DNA from: Candidatus Krumholzibacteriota bacterium
Lineage (GTDB): Bacteria > Krumholzibacteriota > Krumholzibacteriia > JAJRXK01
Assembly: GCA_963727455.1 (NCBI GenBank)
Contig: CAVSGG010000009.1
Coordinates: forward strand, 32,001 to 96,000
Reading direction: 5' to 3'
Length of the DNA: 64,000 nt
Of the stretch, positions 4,369 through 19,201 are shown in pieces (positions within the stretch are counted from its first letter, which is position 1; each line of letters begins with the position of its first letter). Under the pieces are notes generated by a model, which saw nothing but the letters and a program-made list of their open reading frames with translations, was not told the DNA's origin and ran no database searches. The position numbers and the translations under genes are program-made.

Positions 4369-5559
4369 ATGAAGATTGCCATCCTGACTCGCAACGCGCG
4401 CGGTTACTCCGTACGAAGATTGCGCCATGCCGCGGACGAGCGAGGACACAAAGTCCGCGCCTACGACACCTTGAAGTTCGCGCTCCACGTCGAGTCCCGT
4501 GAACCCGACCTCCTGTACAATCAGCGCGCCATCGAAAACTGTGACGTGGTGATTCCGCGCATTGGATCATCGATCACCCCCTTCGGCACCGCCGTGGTGC
4601 GGCAGTTCGAGCAAATGGGAGTGAGTTGCCTGAACACCTCGACTTCCATCAGCGTTTCCCGTGACAAGTTGCGCAGCCTCCAGGTTTTGAGCCGCCACGA
4701 CATCGGCATGCCGGAATCCGCTTTCGTTCGGCGCAAAGAGGACGTGATACCGGCAATTCGTGGCGTGGGCGGAGCGCCCGTGATCATCAAGCTCCTCGAG
4801 GGTTCACAGGGAATCGGGGTGATCCTCGCCGACCAAGAGACGATCGCGGCCGCGATCATCGAGACTCTGCAAAGTGCGAGGCAGAGCGTGCTCATTCAGA
4901 AATTCGTTTCTGAAAGCAAGGGGAAGGACATCCGCGCGCTCGTGGTGGGAGGTCGAGTGGTGGCCGCCATGCGCCGAAGGGCTGCGGGTCACGAGTTTCG
5001 CAGCAACGTGCACCGAGGGGGACGAACCGAGCCGGTGGAACTGGACGAGGAATACCAACGCACCGCGGTGAAGGCGGCACAGATCATGGGTTTGCGCCTG
5101 GCTGGCGTGGATATCCTCGAAAGCGAGGAAGGTCCCCAGGTCATGGAGGTGAATTCCTCTCCGGGACTCGAAGGGATCGAGAAGGCCACCGGGGTGGACG
5201 TCGCGGGAGCGATCATCGAGCACCTCGAGGAACTCGTGCTCTTTCCGGAGATCGATCTGCGACAACGCCTCACCCTGAAGAGCGGATATGGAGTGGCGGA
5301 GTTCCAGGTGAACCGAGAATCGAGCCTGTGCAACACCCCCATCGCGGAGACGGGTCTGAGAGAGCGCGATGTGCTCGTGTTGAGCATCCAGAGGGCGGGC
5401 ATCAGCATTCCCGCCCCTCACGGTCGCCACGAGATCCTTCCCGGAGACACTCTGGTATGTTACGGCAAAATCCTCACTCTGAAGTCGCTGATCCCGGCCA
5501 AGAAGCCGCGGCGACGCAAGAAAAAACGCAATTCGAGTTCGGGCGGAGGACGCAAATGA
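4369..5559 (+). CDS. rimK: RimK-family alpha-L-glutamate ligase (ATP-grasp) with C-terminal RCK_C/TrkA-C domain
   Basis: VIPRIG, SRDKLRSLQVL, KLLEGSQGIGV, DIRALVVG, EFRSNVHRGG, EVNSSPGLEGIE; the extra ~100 aa (SSLCNTPIAETGLRERDVLVLSIQRAG..PAP.G...ILPGDTLVCYG) matches RCK_C. Confidence 0.92.
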   Translation: MKIAILTRNARGYSVRRLRHAADERGHKVRAYDTLKFALHVESREPDLLYNQRAIENCDVVIPRIGSSITPFGTAVVRQFEQMGVSCLNTSTSISVSRDKLRSLQVLSRHDIGMPESAFVRRKEDVIPAIRGVGGAPVIIKLLEGSQGIGVILADQETIAAAIIETLQSARQSVLIQKFVSESKGKDIRALVVGGRVVAAMRRRAAGHEFRSNVHRGGRTEPVELDEEYQRTAVKAAQIMGLRLAGVDILESEEGPQVMEVNSSPGLEGIEKATGVDVAGAIIEHLEELVLFPEIDLRQRLTLKSGYGVAEFQVNRESSLCNTPIAETGLRERDVLVLSIQRAGISIPAPHGRHEILPGDTLVCYGKILTLKSLIPAKKPRRRKKKRNSSSGGGRK

Positions 5560-6623
5560 AGAAGAGCACGTCCGCGTTCCGGCTGGGGGGCGTCCGGGTA
5601 CCGCGCGGCGAATCGCGTGACATTCGCATCGAGCTGAGCCAGAGCTACACCGGTGACGTAATCAGCCTGCCGGTGCACGTGCTTCGAGGAAAGACCAAGG
5701 GACCGACCCTCTTCGTGACTGCGGCGATCCATGGCGACGAGATCAACGGCACCGGCATCCTGCACGAGATTCTCTTCGACACCCCCCTGAAACTCGTGGC
5801 GGGAACTCTCATCCTGGTTCCGGTGGTCAACGTCTTCGGTTTCGAAACGCAGGATCGTTACATGCCCGACCGTCGCGATCTCAATCGCTTCTTTCCGGGG
5901 GACCCCACCGGCAGCCTGACGCGGCGCATCGCACACACTCTCTTCTCACAGATCGTGGGGCAGAGCGACTTCGGGATCGATCTGCATACCGCGGCCACCG
6001 GACGGACCAACTTTCCCAACGTGCGCGGCGACCTGAGAAACAAAGATGTACGTCGCCTGGCGCGTTCCTTCGGTTGCGAACTCATGGTTCACGGCCGCGG
6101 CCCCGAAGGTTCCTTGCGCCGGGAGGCAGTCAAAGCAGGTTGTCCGACCATTCTCCTCGAGGCCGGGGAGCCCTCCAAAATCGAACGGGGGGTGCAGGAA
6201 ACTGGAGTCCGGGGGATTCTGAACGTCCTTTCGGACCTGGGGATGATCGAGCGGCAAGCGGTTCAGCCCCTCTATCAGGTCAAGATCTATCGCTCCGTGT
6301 GGCTGCGGGCGGAAGCGGCGGGAATCCTGCGCTTCCACGTGAGCCCGGGCGAGCTGGTCGAGGCCGGCCAGGCCATCGCGACCAACGTGAGCGTGTTCGG
6401 AGAGACGCAAAACACTCTGCTTTCGCCGGTCGACGGTATCATCCTGGGGATGACCACCCTGCCCGCGGTGAAGCCGGGGGAGCCGGTATGTCACCTCGCG
6501 ATTCCCTCGCGTTCTTTGAAGGGAGTGCGTCGCGCACTGGAGCGTTCCCGGTCCCTCGAGTTCGAGACCGCCTCGCCGGGGAGCCTAACTTCACAGACGA
6601 TCTTCGAGCAGCGCGAGGACTGA
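5556..6623 (+). CDS. Succinylglutamate desuccinylase/aspartoacylase family (M14-like) protein
   Basis: AAIHGDEING, DLNRFFPG, IDLHT, LLEAG and a C-terminal biotinyl-like hairpin; ATGA overlap with the rimK stop. Confidence 0.9.
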   Translation: MKKSTSAFRLGGVRVPRGESRDIRIELSQSYTGDVISLPVHVLRGKTKGPTLFVTAAIHGDEINGTGILHEILFDTPLKLVAGTLILVPVVNVFGFETQDRYMPDRRDLNRFFPGDPTGSLTRRIAHTLFSQIVGQSDFGIDLHTAATGRTNFPNVRGDLRNKDVRRLARSFGCELMVHGRGPEGSLRREAVKAGCPTILLEAGEPSKIERGVQETGVRGILNVLSDLGMIERQAVQPLYQVKIYRSVWLRAEAAGILRFHVSPGELVEAGQAIATNVSVFGETQNTLLSPVDGIILGMTTLPAVKPGEPVCHLAIPSRSLKGVRRALERSRSLEFETASPGSLTSQTIFEQRED

Positions 6624-6627
6624 AACG

Positions 6628-7461
6628 ATGAGCACAACGCGCATCCGCAGTTGGACGCACCGGGCCGAGGATTCCCAGGGTCTGCCGGAAACCGGCTCGC
6701 CGAGCATTGCACTGCGATATCGTGGACGTCCCGGCGGCGACGGAAAGTGCGAGGATGCCGCGCTCGTCCTCGAACTCGGCCCCCACTCGCATCTGTTGGC
6801 GGTAGCGGACGGAATGGGTAGCGGGGCCCGAGCGGACGACGCCTCGGCCACGATCGTCGAGTGCCTGGCCAAACGCGCTGAAGCGCTCGCCGACGAGAGC
6901 ACTTCCCGATTGGAGATCCTCAATGCCATCGAGGAAGCCAACGAGCAAATCCGCGGCTGGGGCGTGGGCGCGGCCACGACGGTGGTCATCGCCCGGGTCG
7001 ATGGCGAGGGCTATCGCACCTACCACGTGGGAGACTCCGAGGCCTTGGTCGCCGGACAGCGCGGCAAGCTGAAGTGGCAAACCGTTTCGCACTCGCCGGT
7101 CGGCTATGCGCAGGCCTCCGGACTCCTCGACGCGCACGACGCCATGGTGCACGAGGAAAGGCATCTGGTGCACAGCATGCTCGGCATGGAAGGAATGCGG
7201 GTGGACGTGGGAGAACGTCGCCACTTCGCCATGCGTGACACCTTGGTGCTGGGCAGTGACGGCCTCTTCGACAACCTGGAGCTGGTGGAGATCGTGGAGA
7301 TCATCCGACGCGGTCCCCTGAAGAAAGCGGCCGACGCGCTTCTCGCCCGAAGTCTGGAGCGCATGAACCGCCCCGAGACGGAGGGCCCGGGCAAGCCCGA
7401 CGACATCGCCTTCATTCTCTACCGCCCCCCGTTCAAGCCCTCTGGGAGCCAGAAAAAATGA
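6628..7461 (+). CDS. PP2C/PPM-family protein phosphatase
   Basis: CEDA, VADGMG, HVGDS, GSDGLFDNL and DDIA metal-binding motifs. Confidence 0.88.
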   Translation: MSTTRIRSWTHRAEDSQGLPETGSPSIALRYRGRPGGDGKCEDAALVLELGPHSHLLAVADGMGSGARADDASATIVECLAKRAEALADESTSRLEILNAIEEANEQIRGWGVGAATTVVIARVDGEGYRTYHVGDSEALVAGQRGKLKWQTVSHSPVGYAQASGLLDAHDAMVHEERHLVHSMLGMEGMRVDVGERRHFAMRDTLVLGSDGLFDNLELVEIVEIIRRGPLKKAADALLARSLERMNRPETEGPGKPDDIAFILYRPPFKPSGSQKK

Positions 7462-8192
7462 GCAGAGCACGCATCCAGAGTTTCAACCTGAAACCAGGAC
7501 GTAAGATCGGACGCAGTTACGAAGTCGAACAGAGGCTCGGGGGAGGCAGCGAGGGAGAGGTCTACCGCATCCGCGAGCGTAGCACGGGAATCCTGCGCGC
7601 CGCCAAGTTGTTCTTCCCCCACCCCGATCCCAAGGGCACGATGCCCGCGCGCAGGGCCCAGAAGTTGGAAGCGCTGCGCGACTGCCCGATCGTGATGCAG
7701 TACTACCACACCGAACACGTGAAGATCGGACAGCTGTGGACCACGGTGATGATCAGCGCGTACTCGCCGGGGCAGCCGCTCCAGGAGTGGGTCGACAAGC
7801 ATCGTGGCAAGAGACTGCGCCCCTTCATCGCCTTGATCATCCTGCACCGTTTGGCTCTTGGCCTGGAGGATGTCCACGACCGCGGCGAGTACCACGCCGA
7901 CGTCCACACCGGAAACATCCTCATCAGTCAGGTCGGCGTGGATTTTCAGTTGAAGCTCATCGATTTCTACGACTGGGGCCGCCCCAGCCGCGCCAAGCAG
8001 CAGAACGACATCCTGCAGGCGGTACGCGTGCTCTACGACATGATCGGGGGGCCCAAGGCCTACCGGGAGAGCCCCAAGGACATCCGCGAGGTGTGCTGCG
8101 GGCTGCGCCACGATCTCATCTTGAGCCGCTATCCCACCATGGCGGCCCTGCGCTATCACCTGGAGAGCTTCGAGCCCACCATCCTGCCCTGA
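7458..8192 (+). CDS. Small soluble Ser/Thr protein kinase-like protein
   Basis: Gly loop LGGGSEGEVY, AAK lysine, catalytic loop HADVHTGNIL, KLIDFY; ATGA overlap with PP2C. Confidence 0.82.
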   Translation: MSRARIQSFNLKPGRKIGRSYEVEQRLGGGSEGEVYRIRERSTGILRAAKLFFPHPDPKGTMPARRAQKLEALRDCPIVMQYYHTEHVKIGQLWTTVMISAYSPGQPLQEWVDKHRGKRLRPFIALIILHRLALGLEDVHDRGEYHADVHTGNILISQVGVDFQLKLIDFYDWGRPSRAKQQNDILQAVRVLYDMIGGPKAYRESPKDIREVCCGLRHDLILSRYPTMAALRYHLESFEPTILP

Positions 8193-8292
8193 GAGCGAGC
8201 CCGGCGCTCTCCGACCAAGGGGAGAGAGCATCGCACTCAGCTCTGCGCCTACAGTGCCACCGAGACGCTCCAGCGGGCACCTGCGCCACACG

Positions 8293-8324
8293 AAAAAGAG
8301 GGGAAGGCCTGCGCCCTCCCCTCT
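8293..8324 (-). terminator. Intrinsic terminator downstream of the multiheme cytochrome
   Basis: AGAGGGGA(8297-8304)/TCCCCTCT(8317-8324) stem followed by TTTTT on the minus strand. Confidence 0.6.
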
Positions 8325-8362
8325 CCTTCATTGGAAGACCGAGGTCCCCGAGACTCGATACC

Positions 8363-9403
8363 TTACTGCAGTTCCGCGAGCCGGCTGTCCACGTAGTTCT
8401 GCGTGGCCGTGAGGACTGCGTTGGTGAAAGTGGTGTTGTGGACGCTCATGGTGGTGTCGTCCAGAAGCAGCAGGTAGTTCCACACTGCCCCACGCGCGTC
8501 CTCATCGACCCCCACGCCCGCCGGCACCACGGCCGAGTGACCGGAGTTCAGCCAGCCCAGAGTCTCCATGTCCGTGGCGAGAGCCTCCAGCTTGGCCGCG
8601 AAGGCGGTCTGAGCATTCTCGACCAGAGTCGTGATCGTCCCCTCGTCGCCACCGTGGCAGAGCACGCAACCCTGGGGATTGATGTACTCGGAACCGTGGA
8701 AGTTGTAAGTCATCCACCAGGAGTGGCCGCCGGCCATTCCGTCTACCGGAGGCGTCGCCATGTGGCAGGTCACGCAACCGTCGGGATTCCCGGTGTTGTG
8801 CGCGTGCAGGGCCGGGTAGGGCTGTCCGTTGAAGGAGTAGGCTCCCTTCCCCACCAGCACGTTGGCCTGCGGGCCGTGGTGCGGTCCCCAATAGGGTGAG
8901 GTGATCGGGTCGGGCGAATCGAAGGCCGGTTCGGGGGTGCGCGCTTGATGACACATCGCGCAGATGTTGCTGTTGCCCCGGTCGTAGGCCCCCGCGCCAC
9001 CCATCTCCAGATCGGTCGGACCGGAGGTGCGCAGAGCGAAGTCACCGTTGGTATGGGGAGCGTGACAGGCGAAGCAGCCGATGTTGGACGACTCCTCCAG
9101 ATCGACGGTGGCGCCGTTGTTGGCGACCCGGTACTGGAAGCCCTCGGTGGTATGGCAGCCCGAGCAGGGGGCGCTGCGGCGCACGTCGGTATCGCCGGTC
9201 GCGTGCTGGCTGGTCTCATACTCGTTTTGGATGGAAACGATGTAATTCTGCATCTGGTAGTCGTCCGTATGGCAGGCGGAGAGACAGGTCGCGGTTCCGG
9301 CGGGACCCGCGGGACCCTGTTCCCCCTGATCTCCCGTGCACCCGGCGAACGCGAGTAGTGTCATCGCCCCGATCAACAGCAAGACGGGGTTCAAGCGCTT
9401 CAT
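8363..9403 (-). CDS. Multiheme c-type cytochrome lipoprotein (5 CxxCH + 1 CxxxCH)
   Basis: Lipobox LLAFAG-C, collagen-like GDQGEQGPAGPAG linker, motifs CLSACH, CSGCH, CFACH, CAMCH, CVTCH, CVLCH. Confidence 0.88.
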   Translation of the reverse strand: MKRLNPVLLLIGAMTLLAFAGCTGDQGEQGPAGPAGTATCLSACHTDDYQMQNYIVSIQNEYETSQHATGDTDVRRSAPCSGCHTTEGFQYRVANNGATVDLEESSNIGCFACHAPHTNGDFALRTSGPTDLEMGGAGAYDRGNSNICAMCHQARTPEPAFDSPDPITSPYWGPHHGPQANVLVGKGAYSFNGQPYPALHAHNTGNPDGCVTCHMATPPVDGMAGGHSWWMTYNFHGSEYINPQGCVLCHGGDEGTITTLVENAQTAFAAKLEALATDMETLGWLNSGHSAVVPAGVGVDEDARGAVWNYLLLLDDTTMSVHNTTFTNAVLTATQNYVDSRLAELQ

Positions 9404-9615
9404 GGCATCATCCTCTCAAGTTCGATTCCCGAAGAAACACGGTGGAGGTGCCTCCTGCGGACCCGTCGACCACCGCACATGGCTTTGCCAGCCGTGCCAA
9501 ATTTGGGCGTCCACAAAAGAGGAGTCAAGGACTTCGTAAACCTGTATTTGCAAGGAGCTTTCAGAGCGGAGCAGATGGCGTGAGTTCGGCGGAGAAGACG
9601 CGCTCCGAGCGGGCT

Positions 9616-10146
9616 TCAGCCGAGTCGCTTCCAGTACACTTCCTTCGCGTCGTTGGCAGCATAGAAGTCCGGATAGCTCACCAAGTGCTCGAAGCCGCTG
9701 GAAAGGTAGAAGTGACGCGTGGGCTCATACTGCGGCTTCCCCGAGGTCTCGATGTAGATTTGCCGGCCATTTTTGCGCTTAATTTTCGCCTCAAGCTCCG
9801 CCAACAGCCAGTGGCCGATCCCCTCCGAACGGTGCTTCTGGTCCACCGCGATCCAGTAGAGGTCGTAGCTGCCCTCGGTGCAGGCGATCTCGCCGTAGCA
9901 GCAGTAGGCACAGGTCAGAGGCTCCTCCGGCGAGGAGCCCGCGGACTCGACGAAAAGAAACTCGTAGCCACTCGCCGCTCCCCGCACCCGCCTCTCCCGC
10001 ACCAGTTCCACCGCGATGGCGCACTCCTGTGGACTGAAGTAGCCGCTGGACCGCACGATTCTCGCGACGGTGTCCTCGTCCTGCGGCCAGAGCCTCTCGC
10101 GAAGGAAGAACCCGGCCGGAATTTTAGCCACGCCCTCTGCCTGCAT
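9616..10146 (-). CDS. GNAT-family N-acetyltransferase
   Basis: YDLYWIAV, acetyl-CoA loop RSEGIGHWLL, IETS...Y..TRHFY...GF. Confidence 0.88.
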   Translation of the reverse strand: MQAEGVAKIPAGFFLRERLWPQDEDTVARIVRSSGYFSPQECAIAVELVRERRVRGAASGYEFLFVESAGSSPEEPLTCAYCCYGEIACTEGSYDLYWIAVDQKHRSEGIGHWLLAELEAKIKRKNGRQIYIETSGKPQYEPTRHFYLSSGFEHLVSYPDFYAANDAKEVYWKRLG

Positions 10147-10150
10147 CGTG

Positions 10151-11917
10151 TCACTCTCCCCTGGCTTTGGTGGGGGAGTACGCCCCCCCCATTCCCTCCA
10201 CGAGCCCTTCGAAGAACGCGCGCGCGTTCGTGCCCAGATTGCGCGTCCGGTAGCCGCCCTCCTGCACCACCACGGTGCGCAGCCGCGCCGCGCCGATGCG
10301 CCGGCCGTTCGTGCGAAAGTCCGCCGGACTCAAAGACCAAGTCCCGGTGGGGTCGCCCTTGGCCGTGTCCAGTCCGAGAGCCACCACCAGGAATTGCGGT
10401 GCGAATTCCTCGATTTTGCTCAGAGCTTTGCTCAAAGTACTTCCGTGGCGCTTCCCGTCCACTCTCTCGGGCAGAGGGAAGTTCCAGTTGAAGCCTTCAC
10501 CCTGCTCCGCTCCGCTCTCCTCGGCGAAGCCGGAAAAGTAGGGATAGGCAAAGCTTGGATGGCCGTGGATGGAGACGGTCAAAACATCCGCCCGCTCGTA
10601 AAAGATCGTCTGTTGGCCGTTCCCGTGGTGGTAATCGATGTCGAGGATTGCCACCTTTCCGTGAGCGCTCAAAAAGTTCGCGGCGATCGCGTTGTTGTTG
10701 AAGTAGCAGAATCCGCCAAAGGCCGCGTGCTCCGCGTGGTGACCCGGCGGACGCACTAAAGCATAGGCGACGCGCTCGCCGTGGAGGACGGCCTCGGCCG
10801 CGGTCAAGGCGCAATCCACCGCCGCGAGCGCGGCGGTGAGTGCATTCGAGTTGAGCGGAGTGAAGGTGTCCATGCAATAGTATCCGGCCCGCACCGAGAG
10901 TTCCTTGGGAGCTCTCGCCTGATTGCGCAGGGGAAAAACGTAGGGATAGACCGACTTTCCCTCGGGCAAGCCCCGGCAGACTTTTTTGAAGAACTCGAAA
11001 TAGCTGCGGTCGTGTACCGCGAGGACGTGCGATTCCGCGAAGTGCCGCGCTTTCACTTCCCGAAACAGCGCGCTCTGATCGAGTTCCTTTCGGATCGCAC
11101 GAATACGCACCGGAGCCTCGACATAACCACGATCCTTGACGTGGTGAATTTCGTGACGTGCGTTGGCCACCAACACGATCGGGGCGAAGGCCTCTTTGAG
11201 TCGCGGATTCTCGCGCATTTTTGGCGCGCGGTAGCGCCTCGATCTCACTTGCACGGGATCGTCGACGAAAGAGGCGACGACCTCGTCGACGTAGCTCGAT
11301 TCGAAGGCCTGTCGATAACGTTTTTGAAGAATCGCTCTGACGATCTTGCGCGCCGCATCGCGGCGCAGGGCCTGGCCCGTCCCCAGATCGTCGTAGACGA
11401 GGTGGGGCATTCCCTTGCGGCCCCCATGCGGAGATAGTTCGTACTTGGTATTGACGATGGGCCGGGCCCCGTACCTCTCGTAGAAGCGCAGGCGCGCCAC
11501 GTTCTGCGAGTACTCCTCTTCGCTCGCACATTCATCGCGCTCGTCAGGAAGACACTCGAAGAACACGCCCAACACTCCCAGGGAACGCGCCTCCTCCCGA
11601 ACGCGTTCGTACAGGGCGCCTCCAATACCGGAGCCTCCCTTTTGCAAATCGGTCGCAATGTAGTCGAGGTAGAGGAAACGGTTGGCCCGGTCGTGAAGCA
11701 CCATCGCAAAGCCCCGCACCGCGCCGCGTGCGTTGTCCGCCACGAAGAGGAGGCTGCGGAATCGAAATTCGACGGGATCGTTCAGGCGCCGCGGCAGATC
11801 CGCGACTTCGCTCTCATCGAGACCGGGAAATCTCTCGCGCAGGATCTCCTGCACGCGCTGCATCTCTTGCCGGTCGAAAGGCAAGGAATCGTCGAAAATA
11901 CGCCGAATGCGGAACAT
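10151..11917 (-). CDS. GNAT-like domain fused to a histone-deacetylase / acetylpolyamine amidohydrolase domain
   Basis: N-terminal YLDYIAT...GSGIGGALY...RLRFYERYG; C-terminal RPPGHHA, GGFCYFNN, DIDYHHGNG, LGLDT, QEGGY. Confidence 0.9.
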   Translation of the reverse strand: MFRIRRIFDDSLPFDRQEMQRVQEILRERFPGLDESEVADLPRRLNDPVEFRFRSLLFVADNARGAVRGFAMVLHDRANRFLYLDYIATDLQKGGSGIGGALYERVREEARSLGVLGVFFECLPDERDECASEEEYSQNVARLRFYERYGARPIVNTKYELSPHGGRKGMPHLVYDDLGTGQALRRDAARKIVRAILQKRYRQAFESSYVDEVVASFVDDPVQVRSRRYRAPKMRENPRLKEAFAPIVLVANARHEIHHVKDRGYVEAPVRIRAIRKELDQSALFREVKARHFAESHVLAVHDRSYFEFFKKVCRGLPEGKSVYPYVFPLRNQARAPKELSVRAGYYCMDTFTPLNSNALTAALAAVDCALTAAEAVLHGERVAYALVRPPGHHAEHAAFGGFCYFNNNAIAANFLSAHGKVAILDIDYHHGNGQQTIFYERADVLTVSIHGHPSFAYPYFSGFAEESGAEQGEGFNWNFPLPERVDGKRHGSTLSKALSKIEEFAPQFLVVALGLDTAKGDPTGTWSLSPADFRTNGRRIGAARLRTVVVQEGGYRTRNLGTNARAFFEGLVEGMGGAYSPTKARGE

Positions 11918-11921
11918 GACC

Positions 11922-12944
11922 TCATGCCCGGTTCAGGAGCAACCCTTTCGGGTTTCTTCCCGCTCGTGCCGCGAGAAGAATTTGGGTGACGACCTCAGAA
12001 CGCGAGAGGCCGGCCTGCTCGGCCGCCGCCATGAAGCCGGCATCGGCGGAGAGACACGGATTCGGATTCACCTCGAGAATCCACTCCCGGCCGGCGTTGT
12101 CCACACGAAAATCGACGCGAGCATAACCACGCAAGCCGAAGAGCCTCCAGCACGCCCTGGCCGCCTCGGCGAGGCGATCCAACAGATCCTGGTCGCCGGC
12201 GCCCTCGACGAACTTGCGAACGGTATGTCCGTAGTCGAAGGAGCTCTCATCCCACTTCGCGGCGTAGCCCACGAGCTTCCGCTTGCCGGCCGGATAGTCG
12301 ACGAAGCACATCTCGGCGATGGGAAGTACGTCGGGCTGCCCGCTCTCCCCTTCCAGAAGTGCGAGATTGAACTCACGCCCCTCGATCCAGGCTTCAGCGA
12401 AGGCCTCACCGCCCAGATTCGAGCGACGCTGGACAATCTCCTCGCGGAGTTCCTGCGGCGAGGTCGCCAGGACGACCGAGGAATCATCGAGCCCCAGTGA
12501 GGCGTCCTCCCAGACCGACTTGACGATGTACTCCCCGGGCCAGAGCGCCGGCCCCTCGATCTCTCCGTCCTGGCTCATGAAGGCCGGAGTCGGCAGCCCG
12601 CTGGCCAAGAGGAGGCGCTTGGTCCACACCTTGTCGCTGCAGAGCACGATGGCCCCGGTGGGAGCACCGGTGTAACCGATCTCCAGCCGATCCAAGAGCG
12701 CCGGCACCAGATGGATCAGTCGTCCCTCGCCGTCGAGAGACTCCACCAGATTGAAGATGAGATCGCAGCCCTCATCCTTCAGCTTCTCTTCGAACTCGTG
12801 CAGAGGAAGGCTGGCGCCCAGACTGCTCACCCGGTGACCGAGCGCGCTCAGGGTCGCCGCGATCTCCTCGACCTGCACCATCCCGTCGCGTTCATCCGGA
12901 CGGCCGGTCAGGGCCCGCTCGTCGTGGGCCAGCACGATCTTCAT
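11922..12944 (-). CDS. D-Ala-D-Ala ligase-like ATP-grasp enzyme (second paralog)
   Basis: Starts MKIVLAHD at 12944 (ATGA overlap); DLIFNLVE, IVKSVWEDASLG, IEGREF, GYARVDFRVD, LEVNPNP. Confidence 0.87.
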   Translation of the reverse strand: MKIVLAHDERALTGRPDERDGMVQVEEIAATLSALGHRVSSLGASLPLHEFEEKLKDEGCDLIFNLVESLDGEGRLIHLVPALLDRLEIGYTGAPTGAIVLCSDKVWTKRLLLASGLPTPAFMSQDGEIEGPALWPGEYIVKSVWEDASLGLDDSSVVLATSPQELREEIVQRRSNLGGEAFAEAWIEGREFNLALLEGESGQPDVLPIAEMCFVDYPAGKRKLVGYAAKWDESSFDYGHTVRKFVEGAGDQDLLDRLAEAARACWRLFGLRGYARVDFRVDNAGREWILEVNPNPCLSADAGFMAAAEQAGLSRSEVVTQILLAARAGRNPKGLLLNRA

Positions 12945-13951
12945 GACGCCATGCTCGCCTGCAACGCTGGACTTCCCTCCGCGATGCGCTTGGTGGCCGA
13001 GGCAAGGATCGCCGCGATCAGATCCCGGTAGGACATGCCCACCGCGGTGCAGGTCATCGGCAGATCCGAGTGAGAGGGGTGCATTCCGGGAAGCGGATTG
13101 ACCTCCAACACGTAGAGTTGTCCGTTCCCGTCCTCGCGTAGATCCACGCGTCCCGCATCCCGGCAACCCAGGGTGCGCCAGGTGGCGAGCGCCAGCTCGG
13201 CGCAACGGGCAGCGGCTGAGGGGTCGGTGAGGAAGTAGTGCACCAGGCTCTCGCATTCCTCCTTGTTCCGATAGGTATAGGCGTGGGCATCGGCCTTCTC
13301 GTCGTAGCCCAGTTCGAGCGTCCCGATCACCGTGGCCTCCTCGCCGGTACCGACGATGCTCGTGGTGAACTCCCTGCCTTTGAGGTAGGGCTCGACGAGC
13401 GCGGGTTGCCGGTACTCCTTCAGGATGGAGAGGCACCTCCGGCGTAACTCTTCGGGCTCCTCGATCTTGGAATTGGAGTCGATTCCCTTGGCGGTTCCCT
13501 CGGCCACTGGCTTCGCGAACACCGGAAAAGGAAAAGTCACCCGCGCCAGGTCCCGGGCGGACTCCACGACCACGAAGTCCGTGGTCGAGATGCCCGCGCT
13601 GCGCAGCACGTGCTTCGTCATCCCCTTGTGCAGAGTCAGGGCACACACCAGAGGATCGGAAAAGGTGTAGGCGATTCCGTAGGCCTCCAGCAGCGCGGGG
13701 ACCTGGGATTCCCGGCCCACGCCCCAGAGTCCCTCGCTGATGTTGAAGACCAGATCCCAACGGTCCTTTGCCGCGAGTCGCCGGGTCAGGGCCTGGACAT
13801 GTCCGATACGATCCACTTCGTGACCGAGCGCCACGAGCTCCTGCTCGATGGAAACGATGGTCCCCTCGCGATCGAACTCGGCGGTTTCGCTCTCGCTGTA
13901 GCCCATCGCCAGATACTCGTCACGCAGGTCGAAGGTCATGCCGATCTTCAT
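12941..13951 (-). CDS. D-Ala-D-Ala ligase-like ATP-grasp enzyme (first paralog)
   Basis: Starts MKIGMTFDL at 13951 (ATGA overlap with kamA); DLVFNISEG, AKPVAEGTAKGI, GREFT, GRVDLR, LEVNPLPG. Confidence 0.87.
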   Translation of the reverse strand: MKIGMTFDLRDEYLAMGYSESETAEFDREGTIVSIEQELVALGHEVDRIGHVQALTRRLAAKDRWDLVFNISEGLWGVGRESQVPALLEAYGIAYTFSDPLVCALTLHKGMTKHVLRSAGISTTDFVVVESARDLARVTFPFPVFAKPVAEGTAKGIDSNSKIEEPEELRRRCLSILKEYRQPALVEPYLKGREFTTSIVGTGEEATVIGTLELGYDEKADAHAYTYRNKEECESLVHYFLTDPSAAARCAELALATWRTLGCRDAGRVDLREDGNGQLYVLEVNPLPGMHPSHSDLPMTCTAVGMSYRDLIAAILASATKRIAEGSPALQASMAS

Positions 13952-15297
13952 GAGGCCTTCTCCTTCTTCCCGCGCCCTCCACGGGCCGAGCTCGTCACGG
14001 GATCGGGGTAACGGTAGATGTTCCCCTCGAAGTTCCTGAGCAGAACGTCGTTGCCATCCCGGCCCACCACGGATTGCGGGAGCAGGGGAATCTTCCCCCC
14101 ACCACCGGGCGCGTCGACCACGTAGGTGGGGACCGCATAGCCGGTGGTGTGCCCACGCAGACCTTCGAGGATCTCCAGACCCTTCTCGATCGGCGTACGG
14201 AGATGACTCGATCCGGAGATGGGATCGCACTGGTAGATGTAGTACGGCCGTACCCGCGCGCGCAGCTCGGCGTGCTTCAGGGCCTTCATGGTCTCCACGT
14301 CGTCGTTCACACCCCGCGTGAGCACGGTCTGACTGCCCACCGGAATGCCCGCGTCCGCCAGCCGCTCGCAGGCCTGAATGACCTCTGGGGTGAACTCGAC
14401 CGGGTGCATGGTGTGAACGCTCAGCCAGAACGGGTGGTAGCGTTTCAGCATGGCCACCAGTTCCGGAGTGATCCGCTGCGGAAGGACCAAGGGAATCTTG
14501 GTGCCGATGCGCAGGAACTCCACGTGCTTGATTGCCCGCAACCGCGAGAGAAGCCACTCCAGCCTCTCGTCGGTCATGGTCAGCGGGTCGCCACCGGAGA
14601 TCAGGACGTCCCTGATTTCTGGGTGCTCGGCGATGTAGTTGATCGCGACCTCGTACTGCGCATACGAGGCGTGAAACTCGGTAGAGTGTCCCACCATGCG
14701 CGCCCGCGTGCAGTAGCGGCAGTAGGTCGCGCAGAAGTTGGTCACCAGGAACAGGACGCGATCGGGGTAGCGGTGGATCAAACCCGGAACCACGGCATCC
14801 GTCTCCTCACCCAGGGGGTCGTCCGCTTCTCCCGGGGTACGCAGGAGCTCTCCCCGCACCGGAATCATCGTCTTCCGGATGGGGTCCTTGGCGTTCTGGG
14901 TGTCCATGAGGGAGGCGTAGTAGGGGGTGATGCCCAGAGGCAACCGCCCGCCGATCCGCTCGATGGTGGCGCGCTCACTGCGACTGAGGGTAAAGATGCG
15001 TTCCAACTGGGCGAGGTTGCGGATCCTCGAGTGCAGTTGCCAACGCCAGCTGTTCCACTCCTCCAGACTGGCCTCGGGGAAGAACAGACGGCGGAACTCG
15101 TCGCTCCGCTCGCTGACAGAGAACACCGCACCACTCTCGGACACGAGGGTATCCGATGCGGCGGATTCGCTGAGTTGTGGTTGAGGAAGGTGACGGGACG
15201 CCGGCTGAGCCTCAGCGGCTTGCCGATTCCGGTGAGCCAGGGGGGGTAAGCCAGGCGCCGGAGGTTCCGAGTCGAGACTCGGACTGAACTTGTTCAT
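13948..15297 (-). CDS. kamA: KamA-family radical SAM/PLP enzyme (lysine 2,3-aminomutase type)
   Basis: HRYPDRVL, CATYCRYC, VLISGGDPL, RPYYIYQCD, VDAPGGGGK (PLP lysine); true start may lie downstream of 15297. Confidence 0.88.
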   Translation of the reverse strand: MNKFSPSLDSEPPAPGLPPLAHRNRQAAEAQPASRHLPQPQLSESAASDTLVSESGAVFSVSERSDEFRRLFFPEASLEEWNSWRWQLHSRIRNLAQLERIFTLSRSERATIERIGGRLPLGITPYYASLMDTQNAKDPIRKTMIPVRGELLRTPGEADDPLGEETDAVVPGLIHRYPDRVLFLVTNFCATYCRYCTRARMVGHSTEFHASYAQYEVAINYIAEHPEIRDVLISGGDPLTMTDERLEWLLSRLRAIKHVEFLRIGTKIPLVLPQRITPELVAMLKRYHPFWLSVHTMHPVEFTPEVIQACERLADAGIPVGSQTVLTRGVNDDVETMKALKHAELRARVRPYYIYQCDPISGSSHLRTPIEKGLEILEGLRGHTTGYAVPTYVVDAPGGGGKIPLLPQSVVGRDGNDVLLRNFEGNIYRYPDPVTSSARGGRGKKEKAS

Positions 15298-15488
15298 TTA
15301 CTTCCTTTGCCCACCAGGTGGGCGGCTGGAGCATGAGCCCGTTACACAAATCGCCCCCCCTTGGACACGACGGGAGAGCGAGGATCACGAGACTGGTTCC
15401 AACGGTGCCATAAAGAGGTCTATTTTTCGCTGACGTCAAGGGCCACTGTGGGTTTTGGAACAACTTTTTTTCAGGCGCAGGCCGTGCC

Positions 15489-15854
15489 TCAGTCGAGGCT
15501 GTCCGCCTTGGCCGCCGCAGCCTGAGCTCCCAGGCGACGGATCTGCACCACCACCGAGTCCAGCTCGGTGTCGGTGATCCCGGAAATGCCCTGCATGCGG
15601 CCCTTGCCGTAACGGGCGATGCGGCGGATCCGCTCGTCGCTGTTGTAGCGTTGGAAGACGGGATCGCGCAGGTCGATGTCCTCCTTGGCCATCTTGCTCG
15701 CGGTGGTGGAGGAGCCATCGATCTCGTGGCAGCGAGCGCAGCGGTAGGCGTAGACGCCGGCAGGACTCGGATCCTCCGGCTTGTGGGAGCAGGCCGCCAG
15801 GGCCATCAAGAGAAACAGACCGGCGAGGAAAACTCTCGGGCGAGGCGCGCTCAT
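15489..15854 (-). CDS. Monoheme cytochrome c lipoprotein
   Basis: Lipobox LAA-C, CARCH, distal G.GRM methionine ligand; start ATG 15854. Confidence 0.8.
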   Translation of the reverse strand: MSAPRPRVFLAGLFLLMALAACSHKPEDPSPAGVYAYRCARCHEIDGSSTTASKMAKEDIDLRDPVFQRYNSDERIRRIARYGKGRMQGISGITDTELDSVVVQIRRLGAQAAAAKADSLD

Positions 15855-15858
15855 GGAC

Positions 15859-17298
15859 TCACCCCGCCGTGATGCGCCTGAGTTGCAGCAGGTTCGTGGA
15901 TCCCGGGATCTGCATGGTCCCACCCAGGACGACCACGGCCTCGCCCTCCTCCACCAAGCCATCATCCAGCAGGAGGCGATCCCCTTCCTGCAGCAGCGAG
16001 TCGGTGTTGTGGGCGAAGGAGGACTCATAGGGTGCCACACCGTGCAGCAGAGCCATCTGCCGGCAGACCCGCGGGTCGGGACAGAAGGCGATGATCGGTA
16101 CCTTGGGCCGCAGCTTACTCAGGACGCGCGCGGTCCGGCCGCTCAGGGTGTAAGCCACGATCAGGCGCACTTGGGTTTCCTCGGCCAGATGCCGGGCCGC
16201 CCACGCCATGGCGCGTACGGCCGGACTGAAGCGGGTCGGGTGCTGGGGGTTCTTCTCGGTGTCGGCGTAGAACTCGGAACGCTCGGCCTCGATGGCGATG
16301 CGGTTCATCATCTCGATGGCCTCGACGGGATACTCGCCTGTCGCGGTCTCCGCCGACAGCATCACCGCGTCGCTACCGTCGAAGATCGCGTTGGCCACGT
16401 CGCTGGCCTCAGCGCGGGTCGGACGGAAGTTGTGTACCATGCTCTCCAGCATCTGGGTCGCGGTGATGACAGTGACGCCGCGCAGATTGGCGGCGCGAAT
16501 CAGTTCCTTCTGCAGCCTGGGAACCCTTTCGGGGGCAAGCTCCACCCCCAGGTCTCCGCGTGCCACCATGATGGCGTCACTCACCTCTAGGATCTCCTCG
16601 ATCTGCTCCACCGCCTGCGGCTTTTCGATCTTGGCGATGATTCCCGGCCCGCCCCCCATGGACTCGATCTCACCCCGAAGCTGGCGGATGTCCTCGGCCT
16701 GTCGCACGAAAGAGAGCGCCACGTAGTCGACGCCGGCTTTCATCCCGCACACGAGATCCTCGCGATCGTGCGCGCCCATGGCGGGGGCATTCAAGGCGCG
16801 GCCGGGAACGTTGATTCCCTTGTGTGGCAGCAAGCGTCCCCCGTGCACGACGCGCACCAGGAGTTCGCTGGCAGACTGCTTCTCCTGAACTCTCAGTTCG
16901 ATGAGTCCGTCGTCCAGGAGGATGGTGTCGCCCAGCTCGAGGTCCTCGGCCAGGCCCCCGTAGGTGCAGGAAATCCGCGCGGCGTCGCCCACGATTTTTT
17001 CCGTCGTGATCACCAACTCGGCGCCGTTTTCGAGCCTCACCCCCGAGGAATTGGCCAGTTCGCCCACGCGCAATTTCGGGCCCTGGAGGTCCAGCATGAC
17101 CGCCAGCTGGCGCCCCCGCTCCTCTCCCACCGATCGTACCGTTTCCACCGCGCGCTTCAAGAACTCGTGGTCACCATGGCTGGCATTGATGCGCGCCACG
17201 TCGAGACCGGCATCGACCAGACGTCCGACGACGGAGGCCTCGATGCTGGAGGGCCCGAGGGTGGCGACGATGCGGGTGGATCGACGTGGCAGTTGCAT
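15859..17298 (-). CDS. pyk: Pyruvate kinase
   Basis: TRIVATLGP, DLQGPKLR, AKIEKP, IMVARGDLGVE, TATQMLESM, RPTRAEASDVANA, AVMLSAETA. Confidence 0.96.
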   Translation of the reverse strand: MQLPRRSTRIVATLGPSSIEASVVGRLVDAGLDVARINASHGDHEFLKRAVETVRSVGEERGRQLAVMLDLQGPKLRVGELANSSGVRLENGAELVITTEKIVGDAARISCTYGGLAEDLELGDTILLDDGLIELRVQEKQSASELLVRVVHGGRLLPHKGINVPGRALNAPAMGAHDREDLVCGMKAGVDYVALSFVRQAEDIRQLRGEIESMGGGPGIIAKIEKPQAVEQIEEILEVSDAIMVARGDLGVELAPERVPRLQKELIRAANLRGVTVITATQMLESMVHNFRPTRAEASDVANAIFDGSDAVMLSAETATGEYPVEAIEMMNRIAIEAERSEFYADTEKNPQHPTRFSPAVRAMAWAARHLAEETQVRLIVAYTLSGRTARVLSKLRPKVPIIAFCPDPRVCRQMALLHGVAPYESSFAHNTDSLLQEGDRLLLDDGLVEEGEAVVVLGGTMQIPGSTNLLQLRRITAG

Positions 17299-17368
17299 GA
17301 GGTCCTCTGAGCGAGTAGCAGCAAGACGAGGAATTCGCAGAATAGCAAGCCGGGGACAAAAGGGCCAG

Positions 17369-19201
17369 TCAGCGGGGCTCTTCCCTTGCCGCTTCTTCGG
17401 GCTGCTCTGTCATCTTGAGAAAGGGCTTGGTGCGCACCGCCAAGGCCAACAGCAGATCGCGCTTGGAAATGCTGCCCAGAAGACTTTGCCCCGTCTCGTC
17501 ATCCACCACCGGCAGGCGCTCCCCATCGTGCTCGGAGAAGACTCGCAATGCGTCGCTGAGCGAGGCCCCGGCGCGAATGAGAGGAAACTCGCGATGCAAA
17601 ATGTCACGCGCGATGACCACGTCAGCCAGGCCACGCAGGGTGAGATATTGCTTGATGTCGTGCAGGGGAATGACCCCCTGGAAGATTCCCGCATCATCCA
17701 CGACGTACAGGTATTTGTTGTTGTTGGTGAGGAAGCTCTGCGCGATCTCCCGAAAGCGTGCGGTCTCGTGGACGGCCAGAGGGTCGTCTCTCATGAGGTC
17801 GCGGACCTGCAATTTCGAGAGCTGCTTGGCGTAGAGCGCGGCGCCCTTGCGCTCCAGGGCCTCGCTGTAAATGGGCACCGGCTCGATGCTGCGCGACACG
17901 TAGTAGGAGATCACACAGGCGAGCATGAGGGGCAACATGAGCTGATAATCGAGAGTCAGCTCGAAGATCATGATGATGGCCATGATGGGTGCGTGGGTGG
18001 TGCCGGCGAGGAACGCGCCCATTCCCAAAAGCGCGAAGCCGCTGGGGCTCAGCAGAGGATTGGGCCAGAACTGACCCAGAGTGTGTCCGAAGAGATAGCC
18101 CAGACACGCCCCGACGAAGAGAGTCGGCGTGAAGACACCGCCCACCGCCCCCGATCCAAAGGTCGCCGCGGTGGCGGCCACTTTGAAGGCGAGAATGAGA
18201 ATGAGGGTGCGCCACATCCATTGGCCGCCGAGAATGGCGCTCACCGTGCTGTAGCCATTCCCGCAAACCTGCGGATAGAACACCGCGAGGCCTCCGACCA
18301 CGGCTCCTCCCAGACCCAGCTTCAAGAAGAGCGGGATTCGCATGCGGCTGAAGAGCCGCTCACTGCTGCGCAAGGTGCGCAGAAACCAGGGCGCCGCGAA
18401 ACCAGCCACGACCCCCAAGGCCATGGTGGGCAGGATCTCCCACACCGAATTCAGGACGAAAGGGGGAATATCGTAGAGGGGAGCCGCGCCCATCAGCTTG
18501 CGAACGGTGAGCGTGGCCACCACCGAAGAGAAGACCAGTGGCCCGAAACTCTCCATTGCCACCGATCCCAGGACGATCTCCGCGATGAAAAGAGCACCCG
18601 CGATCGGTGCGTTGTAGGCGGAAGCAATTCCAGCCGCCCCGCCACAGGCGCTGATGAGCCGCCGCCGAGGCGTGGACCAGTGGCGAAAACGTCCCACCAG
18701 TGAGGCGATCATGGCCGAGAGCTGGACCATTGGCCCCTCTCGCCCGATCGATCCCCCGCCGGCGATCGAGAACAGCGCCGAGGCCGATTTCACGAGGCTC
18801 GACCTCACCGCCACCAGACCGTTGCCCACCACGATGGCTTCCATGTAATCGGTGGAATGCCGGCTGCGCGCGATACGACTGCCCCAGTAGAGAATGGCGC
18901 CCGCCATCAGACCGCCCACGGTGGGGGTCAAAGCGCGCTGCCAAAGGGGAAGATGAATGAAGCTCTCGACCACACCGCCTGATTGGCCGGTCAAAAACAA
19001 GTGCACCGCGTAGCTCAGGCGGCGGAAGATCACCGAGGCCACCGCGCCCAGATAGCCCCACCACACCGGCCCAGAAGAGGGTCTCGTGCAGCTCGCTGGG
19101 GCGGATGGTCTCCGCCATCCAAAGCCTCAGCTTGAGCAATCCCAAGAGGCGAGGAGGGCTCCCCCCTCCGGGGATTCGTTGCGGTCCTTCATCTCCGCCA
19201 T
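17369..19201 (-). CDS. ClcB-like chloride channel/transporter with C-terminal CBS pair (5' end frameshifted)
   Basis: GGSIGREGP, AYNAPIAG and GGVFTPTLFVG motifs plus CBS domains; the N-terminus (LKLRLWMAETIRPSELHETLFWAGVVG) is in another frame, with shifts in G/C runs near 19057 and probably 19165; start approximate. Confidence 0.8.

Follow-up and report, generated by a model that had tools for sequence, protein, structure and literature searches.

A conserved gene cassette for a predicted lysine 2,3-aminomutase, two Ddl-fold ATP-grasp ligases and GNAT acetyltransferases, with a possible beta-lysine-derived product

Introduction

What does a bacterium make when a radical S-adenosylmethionine (SAM) aminomutase, two ligases of the D-alanine-D-alanine ligase (Ddl) fold and two GNAT proteins, one of them fused to a deacetylase, are encoded side by side? 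This question is raised by a stretch of 64,000 nucleotides from a Candidatus Krumholzibacteriota bacterium (assembly GCA_963727455.1, contig CAVSGG010000009.1, positions 32,001 to 96,000; the whole stretch is hereafter called the window), in which five genes, here called KamA, Lig1, Lig2, GNAT-HDAC and small GNAT, are tightly packed on the minus strand between positions 9616 and 15297. A first-pass annotation, made from the sequence without database searches, had described five co-oriented genes joined by ATGA overlaps or 4-bp gaps. This layout holds: the junctions KamA/Lig1 and Lig1/Lig2 are ATGA overlaps, and the junctions Lig2/GNAT-HDAC and GNAT-HDAC/small GNAT are 4-bp gaps. It had further been proposed that beta-lysine is ligated into a short peptide, polyamide or protein tag, the charge of which is tuned by reversible acetylation.

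Our analysis shows that this cassette is real, strongly conserved and uncharacterised, and that it is built from known enzyme families. With somewhat more confidence than doubt, we read it as a self-contained biosynthetic operon that would convert lysine to beta-lysine, form two ATP-dependent amide bonds, N-acetylate the product and optionally deacetylate and re-acetylate it, which would result in a small beta-lysine-derived amide. The earlier statement that no characterised product or published pathway covers this arrangement agrees with our literature search, in which no description of a KamA, ATP-grasp and GNAT cassette was found in the open-access full texts searched.

The cassette occurs in at least several hundred species-level genomes from more than ten phyla, where its genes are annotated as "D-alanine--D-alanine ligase" and with generic names, and they probably encode a metabolite that present accounts of stress physiology and nitrogen metabolism in bacteria do not include. 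If the product were known, a large body of mis-annotation would be set right and two substrate specificities new to the Ddl family defined; the fusion of a GNAT domain with an acetylpolyamine amidohydrolase (APAH) would gain a first role, and a compatible solute or polyamine analogue might be added to those known. Since cultured bacteria carry all five genes and a crystal structure (2r7h) exists for a close relative of the small GNAT, the question is directly testable. The present work adds the GNAT-APAH fusion as fifth gene with its two-way linkage, a residue map of the ligases, a selection test and a lineage-specific leader.

Conservation and arrangement of the cassette

Lig1 was used to scan species-representative genomes twice, which gave 46 and 80, together 126 loci; in the second scan, a relative was encoded in 584 of the 600 pattern matches listed, i.e. 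in at least 584. The presence of the other genes was counted by identity thresholds at evaluable loci. Counted in this way, Lig1 is accompanied by Lig2 in 101 of 112 loci, by KamA in 91 of 108 and by the small GNAT in 83 of 94, whereas GNAT-HDAC is present in only 36 of 94. At the 83 loci with both flanks long enough, the arrangement KamA-Lig1-Lig2-GNAT was found 33 times and all five genes 30 times, followed by Lig1-Lig2-GNAT (10 loci), KamA-Lig1-Lig2 (4), KamA-Lig1 (3), Lig1 alone (2) and KamA-Lig1-GNAT (1). The genes thus do co-occur in many phyla, the point for which the first-pass annotation had suggested a neighbourhood survey. Its view of the five-gene set as a unit stands as far as function is concerned, but the conserved core consists of the four genes KamA-Lig1-Lig2-GNAT, and GNAT-HDAC is an accessory.

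According to the record titles, cassettes are found in Krumholzibacteriota, Gammaproteobacteria (Woeseiaceae, Lysobacterales), Alphaproteobacteria, Planctomycetota, Myxococcota, Desulfobacterota (Smithella, Syntrophales, Desulfobacterales, Desulfovibrionales), Spirochaetota, Bacteroidota, Ignavibacteriales, Acidobacteriota, Fibrobacter, Lentisphaerae and others. Cultured carriers of the full five-gene set are Engelhardtia mirabilis Pla133 (L027) and Rhodovulum marinum DSM 18063 (L237). Six Dehalococcoidia loci (L192, L216, L230, L234, L241 and L224) show the order KamA-Lig1-Lig2-GNAT-(GNAT-HDAC) with ligases approximately 33% identical to those of the window. Because such diverged ligases fall below the thresholds, the cassette counts are conservative.

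The closest relative of the region is a metagenome-assembled genome of Krumholzibacteriota (L001), which has the same gene order and five proteins that are 65-88% identical. Furthermore, the source assembly itself holds a second full copy of the cassette on contig C8, with proteins 84-93% identical to the window copies on contig C9. The entire window (1-64000) is collinear with C8:292628-362882 at approximately 82-86% nucleotide identity, which would fit either a bin made up of two related populations or a very large duplication. In a search of sequencing runs for this DNA, the runs listed were DNA from soil and sediment metagenomes, with no RNA run among them. Between the C9 and C8 copies, dN/dS is 0.08-0.18 in all five genes at dS values of 0.46-0.76; all five are under purifying selection. 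Given this selection and the recurrence of the arrangement in more than 100 loci, the five genes form a functional unit and their arrangement is not due to chance.

Gene fusions point in the same direction. Among the 120 longer Lig1 homologues listed, 49 are Lig1+Lig2 fusions, 11 are KamA+Lig1 fusions, two are Lig1+Lig2+GNAT fusions and one is of another kind, and the protein atlas contains clusters of Lig2-like + GNAT fusions with 68 and 107 members. These fusions follow the gene order and hence support a sequence KamA, Lig1, Lig2, GNAT. The other 57 of the 120 are double ATP-grasp proteins (e.g. P0190, within the range P0173-P0239), both halves of which are 35-39% identical to Lig1. They constitute a separate, also unnamed two-ligase family, for which the source names suggest Myxococcota and others.

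The most common additional neighbour is a CxxCxxCC (PF03692) gene at 13 of the 126 loci. As no other family occurs at more loci than this, neither a target protein nor a carrier or transporter is conserved beside the cassette. In planctomycete cassettes, the PF03692 gene encodes a putative metal-chelating protein of approximately 170-185 aa and lies between KamA and Lig1 (L027:6490-6999, L030:6446-7000, L044:6480-7000 and ten further loci); it may assist the aminomutase with Fe-S or Zn.

The aminomutase

KamA (13948-15297, minus strand, 449 aa; Pfam LAM_C and Radical_SAM) is a radical-SAM/pyridoxal phosphate (PLP) aminomutase, predicted to be a lysine 2,3-aminomutase, and aligns to the Clostridium subterminale enzyme (PDB 2A5H) with an E value of 1.1e-131. 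The radical-SAM cysteines C189/C193/C196 (C125/C129/C132 of 2A5H) are kept in 100/100 cassette KamAs and the PLP lysine K402 (K337) in 101/101; R198 (R134) is kept as well, with 100-101 sequences counted per position. We take the roles of the aligned cysteines, of R134 and of K337 to be those given in the 2A5H literature. The aspartates D358 in YQCD and D395 in VVDAPGGGGK, which correspond to D293 and D330 of 2A5H, are each present in 101/101 sequences. D293 and D330 are the residues that bind the epsilon-ammonium group of lysine, and Ruzicka and Frey are reported to have found in 2007 that both are replaced in glutamate 2,3-aminomutase. The clostridial enzyme has a structural Zn site composed of C268 and a C-terminal Cys cluster. 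The position of C268 is occupied by Asp in the window KamA and by Cys in 0/101 orthologues, and the C-terminal tail contains no Cys. The first-pass annotation had pointed out both the two retained aspartates and the missing Zn-binding cysteines, and the alignment bears it out on both counts.

At the level of family models, KamA passes the subfamily model TIGR00238 (353 bits, cut-off 199) and stays below the equivalog cut-offs for AblA (TIGR03820, 479 vs 525.4), the glutamate enzyme (428 vs 650), the arginine enzyme (399 vs 600) and EpmB (244 vs 369.3). Since it passes the subfamily model only, with AblA giving its best equivalog score before the glutamate and arginine models, KamA probably works like a lysine 2,3-aminomutase that is not the curated AblA. 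Its active site appears to be of the lysine type, with a predicted conversion of L-lysine to beta-lysine. One may argue that KamA acts on ornithine, arginine, glutamate or another amino acid and that the product is not based on beta-lysine at all; scores under every equivalog cut-off, AblA included, and the missing clostridial Zn site would be compatible with this. Nevertheless, we regard a different substrate as improbable, given that the lysine-binding aspartates are invariant and that AblA outscores the alternatives. Lysine is hence the substrate that we assume for the cassette KamA in the following. The genome contains only two KamA-family genes, one in each cassette copy.

The two ATP-grasp ligases

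Lig1 (12941-13951, minus strand, 336 aa) and Lig2 (11922-12944, minus strand, 340 aa) share 28-30% identity and are predicted to be the first and the second ligase of the pathway. Both match the C-terminal Ddl domain (PF07478 Dala_Dala_lig_C) with 97.7 and 58.6 bits, respectively, and both lack the N-terminal GGxSxE motif, which the true Ddl of the same genome has as GGSSAERE. This is what had been noticed from the sequence at first, with the nuance that 33/42 Lig1 orthologues have a Glu aligned with E15 of E. coli DdlB, close to the N-terminus, where the alignment is uncertain. Their PDB matches are Ddl and Van enzymes only (E values 4.5e-26 and 5e-16). However, on the Ddl models NF002378 (cut-off 243) and TIGR01205 (cut-off 245.65), Lig1 reaches 161.7 and 129 bits and Lig2 101.6 and 87 bits, compared with 260.8 bits, above its cut-off, for the true Ddl on contig C7. 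The AlphaFold2 (AF2) model of Lig1 (pLDDT 89.6) has its best PDB match in DdlB 8evy (TMq 0.78), so the modelled Lig1 has the three-domain ATP-grasp fold of Ddl. The predicted Lig1-Lig2 complex scored 0.27 against a mark of 0.32, which is evidence neither for nor against pairing of the two proteins.

To locate the differences from Ddl, E. coli DdlB, the genome's own Ddl, 42 Lig1 and 33 Lig2 sequences were aligned (DdlB numbering). The residues for ATP, Mg and the transition state are shared with Ddl and VanA-type ligases: K97, K144, E180, K215, R255, D257 and N272 are present in 42/42 Lig1 and 33/33 Lig2, and E270 in 42/42 Lig1 and 30/33 Lig2, where the remaining three have Asp. In contrast, the substrate contacts are exchanged. 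From structure-function work on DdlB, we take the D-Ala-binding residues to be E15 in GGxSxE, H63, S150, Y216 and S281/L282. Lig1 carries the changes H63E, S150T, Y216E and L282D in 42/42 sequences each. Lig2 carries H63E, Y216W and L282G in 33/33, S281A in 31/33 and G276C in 32/33, with Ala or Gly at the position of S150. Read against DdlB, the Lig1 pocket would be acidified and the Lig2 pocket roomier and less polar. Every named protein among the 120 best near-length homologues of Lig1 is called D-alanine-D-alanine ligase. The residue map does not support this annotation; rather, it supports the view that Lig1 and Lig2 are not housekeeping Ddl.

These data also bear on a simple explanation of the cassette, namely that KamA and the GNAT produce N-epsilon-acetyl-beta-lysine as an ordinary osmolyte and the ligases have an unrelated job, for example the synthesis of a cell-wall dipeptide. 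The combination of KamA and a GNAT indeed follows the known AblAB logic, as passages in PMC3543383 and PMC9337991 describe it. But the ligases are the most tightly linked parts of the cassette, as seen from the frequency of Lig2 and from the KamA+Lig1 and Lig1+Lig2 fusions, the residues that give Ddl its specificity are exchanged in them, and the genome encodes a true Ddl elsewhere. Moreover, some loci keep KamA and the ligases without the GNAT, and the GNAT has no AblB match. Such an osmolyte pathway with unconnected ligases is therefore very improbable in our view, and we continue to treat both ligases as parts of the predicted beta-lysine pathway.

Outside the window and apart from both cassettes, contig C9 contains a third Ddl-like gene (C9:474476-475357, L056), the product of which scores 105.9 bits on the Ddl model and is 29% identical to Lig2.

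Acetyltransferases and deacetylase

GNAT-HDAC (10151-11917, minus strand, 588 aa) combines a weak N-terminal GNAT match with a strong Hist_deacetyl match (PF00850, residues 266-571, 249.6 bits vs a cut-off of 27.9). The best PDB matches of the C-terminal 320 aa are APAHs (9gkz, 1.1e-67; 6phr, 2.8e-67; 3q9b, 6.9e-61; 3men, 2.1e-59), and weaker ones include HDAC6 and other protein deacetylases. H393-H394, D426/D428/H430, D517 and E553-G554-G555-Y556 are invariant in 16 GNAT-HDAC orthologues; we assume that they have the usual HDAC roles, i.e. the His-His dyad, the Asp/His/Asp metal ligands and the catalytic Tyr in GGY. The predicted activity of the deacetylase half is hence of the APAH type, a group of small-molecule enzymes. 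The resemblance to APAHs is thus close (E values of 1e-67 to 2e-59, all metal-binding and catalytic motifs invariant), with the difference that the domain is fused here to an N-terminal GNAT and placed within a predicted beta-lysine ligase operon.

The N-terminal 245 aa are modelled as a GNAT fold (pLDDT 86.5); this domain and the small GNAT are not close paralogues. Its structural matches (GCN5, AAC(6'), 2r7h and SpeG, TMq about 0.5) are generic, and its substrate can therefore not be read from them. The small GNAT (9616-10146, minus strand, 176 aa; Acetyltransf_7, 36.6 bits) matches PDB 2r7h (DDE_3044 from Desulfovibrio) with an E value of 1.4e-34; text passages found for the locus tags around DDE_3044 (PMC8836040, PMC4045070) are unrelated. 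No match to AblB (TIGR03827) was found for either GNAT at E <= 0.01, nor for any protein genome-wide.

Linkage was also surveyed in the reverse direction. Among 80 GNAT-HDAC loci, cassette genes accompany 48; another 13, with flanks of 4 kb or more on either side, have none within 4 kb, and 19 were not evaluable. The neighbours of these 13 stand-alone genes are heterogeneous. GNAT-HDAC is thus mostly, not exclusively, an accessory of the cassette. As it is present in a minority of the evaluable Lig1 loci, reversible acetylation would be an option of the pathway and not its defining step.

With APAH-type enzymes known from the breakdown of acetylpolyamines and GNAT-HDAC found away from the cassette in 13/61 evaluable loci, the cassette could also be viewed as a catabolic or salvage module that dismantles or recycles an acetylated compound of beta-lysine or polyamine type from outside the cell. 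This direction does not fit the ATP-grasp ligases and KamA, which are biosynthetic, nor the neighbourhood, in which no transporter or degradation gene is conserved, and BKACE was not found genome-wide. We give salvage very little credence and retain biosynthesis as the predicted direction of the cassette.

Possible sinks of beta-lysine in the genome

The first-pass annotation had stated that neither efp, epmA nor lysine-fermentation genes are present in the window, and indeed none was found near the operon. An efp gene is located on another contig and encodes an EF-P with a Lys-type loop (PGKG). No EpmA over the cut-off was detected genome-wide; the best match reaches 245.4 vs 286.9 bits and is a 535-aa open frame. 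BKACE had no match genome-wide either. PF09043 (lysine 5,6-aminomutase) had no match in the genome and none in control genomes, hence this search is uninformative. The canonical beta-lysine sinks AblB, EpmA and Kce were thus not found in the genome. In the absence of an EpmA over the cut-off, of AblB and of BKACE, the ligases are the only recognised sink for beta-lysine in this genome.

The same survey is relevant for the idea that the product is a protein or peptide modification, in which a protein receives beta-lysine or a short beta-lysyl chain from the ligases and the GNAT and the deacetylase tune the charge of this tag. Conceivable forms are a beta-lysylation of EF-P that does not need EpmA, or the addition of a tail to a ribosomal protein in the manner of RimK. 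Some ATP-grasp enzymes, RimK among them, are protein-modifying, the EF-P of this genome has a Lys-type loop, no EpmA reaches its cut-off, and the HDAC family includes protein deacetylases, HDAC6 and others being among the weaker matches of the fusion protein. On the other hand, efp lies on another contig and the cassette has no conserved target or carrier gene next to it, the ligases are of the Ddl and not of the RimK/LysX type, the nearest relatives of the deacetylase are small-molecule APAHs, and KamA falls below the EpmB cut-off. We therefore consider a protein modification to be unlikely. The protein-tag part of the original proposal is weakened accordingly, by the APAH-type deacetylase, the compact Ddl fold of the ligases and the lack of a conserved target protein nearby; its other part, the ligation of beta-lysine into a small molecule, stands as a reading, with reversible acetylation as an option.

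Proposed pathway

The small-molecule reading is based on the Ddl-type ligases, the APAH-type deacetylase, the fusions in pathway order and the lack of a conserved target, carrier or transporter. In the first step, KamA would convert L-lysine to beta-lysine, as its active-site residues suggest. Lig1 would then activate a carboxylate as acyl phosphate and form the first amide bond, most likely with beta-lysine as one partner; candidates for the other partner are a second beta-lysine, another basic amino acid or a diamine. The acidic pocket of Lig1, with three acidic contact positions, would suit a substrate with additional ammonium groups. Lig2, which has Trp, Gly and Ala at its contact positions, would most likely add a second amide bond to the larger Lig1 product. 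Subsequently, the small GNAT may N-acetylate a free amine and lower the net positive charge. Where present, GNAT-APAH could remove and/or re-position the acetyl group on the aminoalkyl arm, which would allow turnover or let the compound alternate between cationic and neutral states. A cytoplasmic solute or polyamine-like compound is the probable product, and candidate physiological roles are osmotic, pH or other stress, or nitrogen storage.

Several points weigh against this pathway. The score of KamA (479) is lower than the AblA cut-off (525.4), which makes lysine a substrate deduced from residues only. The meaning of the changed ligase positions depends on structure-function work on DdlB and on an alignment that is uncertain at the N-terminus, and the order of the steps is derived from gene order and fusions alone. 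The 13/61 evaluable GNAT-HDAC loci without cassette suggest that this enzyme may also serve other substrates. Judged from the record titles, carriers come from saline as well as non-saline sources, hence an osmolyte role has no clear support. Finally, the source assembly is 88.85% complete with 6.68% contamination, so that the absence of genes is provisional.

Among the characterised systems, AblA/AblB (kamA-yodP of Bacillus) is closest in logic: a lysine 2,3-aminomutase and an acetyltransferase synthesise the compatible solute N-epsilon-acetyl-beta-lysine, according to the parts of PMC3543383 and PMC9337991 on this pathway. Both systems have a lysine-type KamA-family enzyme and a GNAT in one operon. 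However, the cassette has two obligatory ATP-grasp ligases and often an APAH-type deacetylase fusion, its GNAT does not belong to the AblB family and its KamA is below the AblA cut-off. EpmB/EpmA is similar in that a KamA-family enzyme supplies beta-lysine to a ligase; it differs in that EpmA is a paralogue of lysyl-tRNA synthetase (LysRS) and not an ATP-grasp enzyme, and here KamA is below the EpmB cut-off and EpmA was not found. Compared with Ddl and VanA-type ligases, the fold and the ATP/Mg/transition-state residues are the same, whereas H63, S150, Y216 and L282 (in Lig2 also S281 and G276) are replaced and GGxSxE is missing.

A further comparison is the synthesis of N-acetylglutaminylglutamine amide (NAGGN), which is made by the bifunctional GNAT + ATP-grasp enzyme Ngg. 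NAGGN is likewise an N-acetylated dipeptide solute formed by ATP-grasp and GNAT activities, and ligase+GNAT fusions exist for the cassette too. The ATP-grasp subfamily and the substrates are different, and NAGGN synthesis includes neither an aminomutase nor a deacetylase.

More tentatively, the product could be a beta-lysine oligoamide of unknown class, an acetylatable, polyamine-like cytoplasmic cation or solute that is widespread in anaerobic and sediment bacteria, the level of which would depend on metabolite-sensing leader RNAs that differ between lineages and, in approximately four of ten carriers, on a dedicated GNAT-APAH acetylation switch. This wider picture is possible, but we hold it to be doubtful.

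Leader sequences upstream of the cassette

Upstream of KamA, the window contains a leader of approximately 110 nt (within 15298-15439, minus strand), which is 95% identical across the C9 copy, the C8 copy and L001. Between C9 and C8, 101 of 111 leader positions are identical, while synonymous sites of the genes differ at 34-48%. A promoter-like -35 box TTGACG (15439-15434, minus strand) is followed by a GC-rich hairpin and a U-rich run (15380-15344, minus strand), with AUUUGUGU directly after the hairpin, which gives it a terminator-like appearance, and by a hairpin with a CGCCCA loop (15329-15314, minus strand) just before the Shine-Dalgarno site. The leader folds no more stably than shuffled sequences do (z -0.5). 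Rfam gave only an insignificant ilvB-OMG match for window positions 8000-18000 at E <= 1, and nothing for ten related loci at the gathering score. A metagenome scan with a 20-nt leader word returned 11 stretches, two of them leaders near-identical to the window-type copies and nine chance matches; being near-identical to known copies, these leaders add no diversity for a covariation test.

Gammaproteobacteria of the Woeseiaceae type (L138-L179, L004-L021, L066-L069) have a distinct cassette leader of approximately 97 nt. Its parts are a promoter of the sigma-70 type, a first hairpin that covaries, a GC hairpin that is invariant and has a U-run, and, as in the window, a hairpin with a CGCCCA loop; the invariant core reads ACGACCCGAAGGGCCGGGCCGGUUUU...GCAGGUCGCCCAACUGC. 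A pattern scan for this leader found 42 stretches. A cassette gene comes next in 39 of them (KamA, in one case Lig1); two of the other three are too short downstream and one gave no hit. In the first hairpin, five of six pairs change on both sides among 43 distinct sequences, in a model-fitted alignment that leans towards the model. In the same model-leaning alignment, covariation was 0.141 vs 0.085 in shuffles (0/500 reach it) and at most 0.080 when the partners were slid. A covariance model of this leader, searched at E <= 1, had no hit in the window, the second copy or L001, and thus lends no support to a shared ancestry of the two leaders. At the Smithella and Syntrophales loci, nothing comparable was seen. 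Both leaders are candidate attenuators or riboswitches, and the Woeseiaceae-type leader may represent a new cis-regulatory RNA.

Genomic surroundings

In the window, KamA is separated by a spacer of 190 nt from an upstream cytochrome c gene, beyond which genes for pyruvate kinase and a CLC channel are located, and a multihaem cytochrome gene lies downstream of the operon; none of these cytochrome, pyruvate kinase and CLC neighbours recurs at other loci. Likewise not conserved beside the cassette, and on the strand opposite to it, positions 5328-8192 (plus strand) hold an AstE/AspA-family gene (succinylglutamate desuccinylase/aspartoacylase-like), followed by genes for a PP2C phosphatase and a small protein with a protein-kinase domain.

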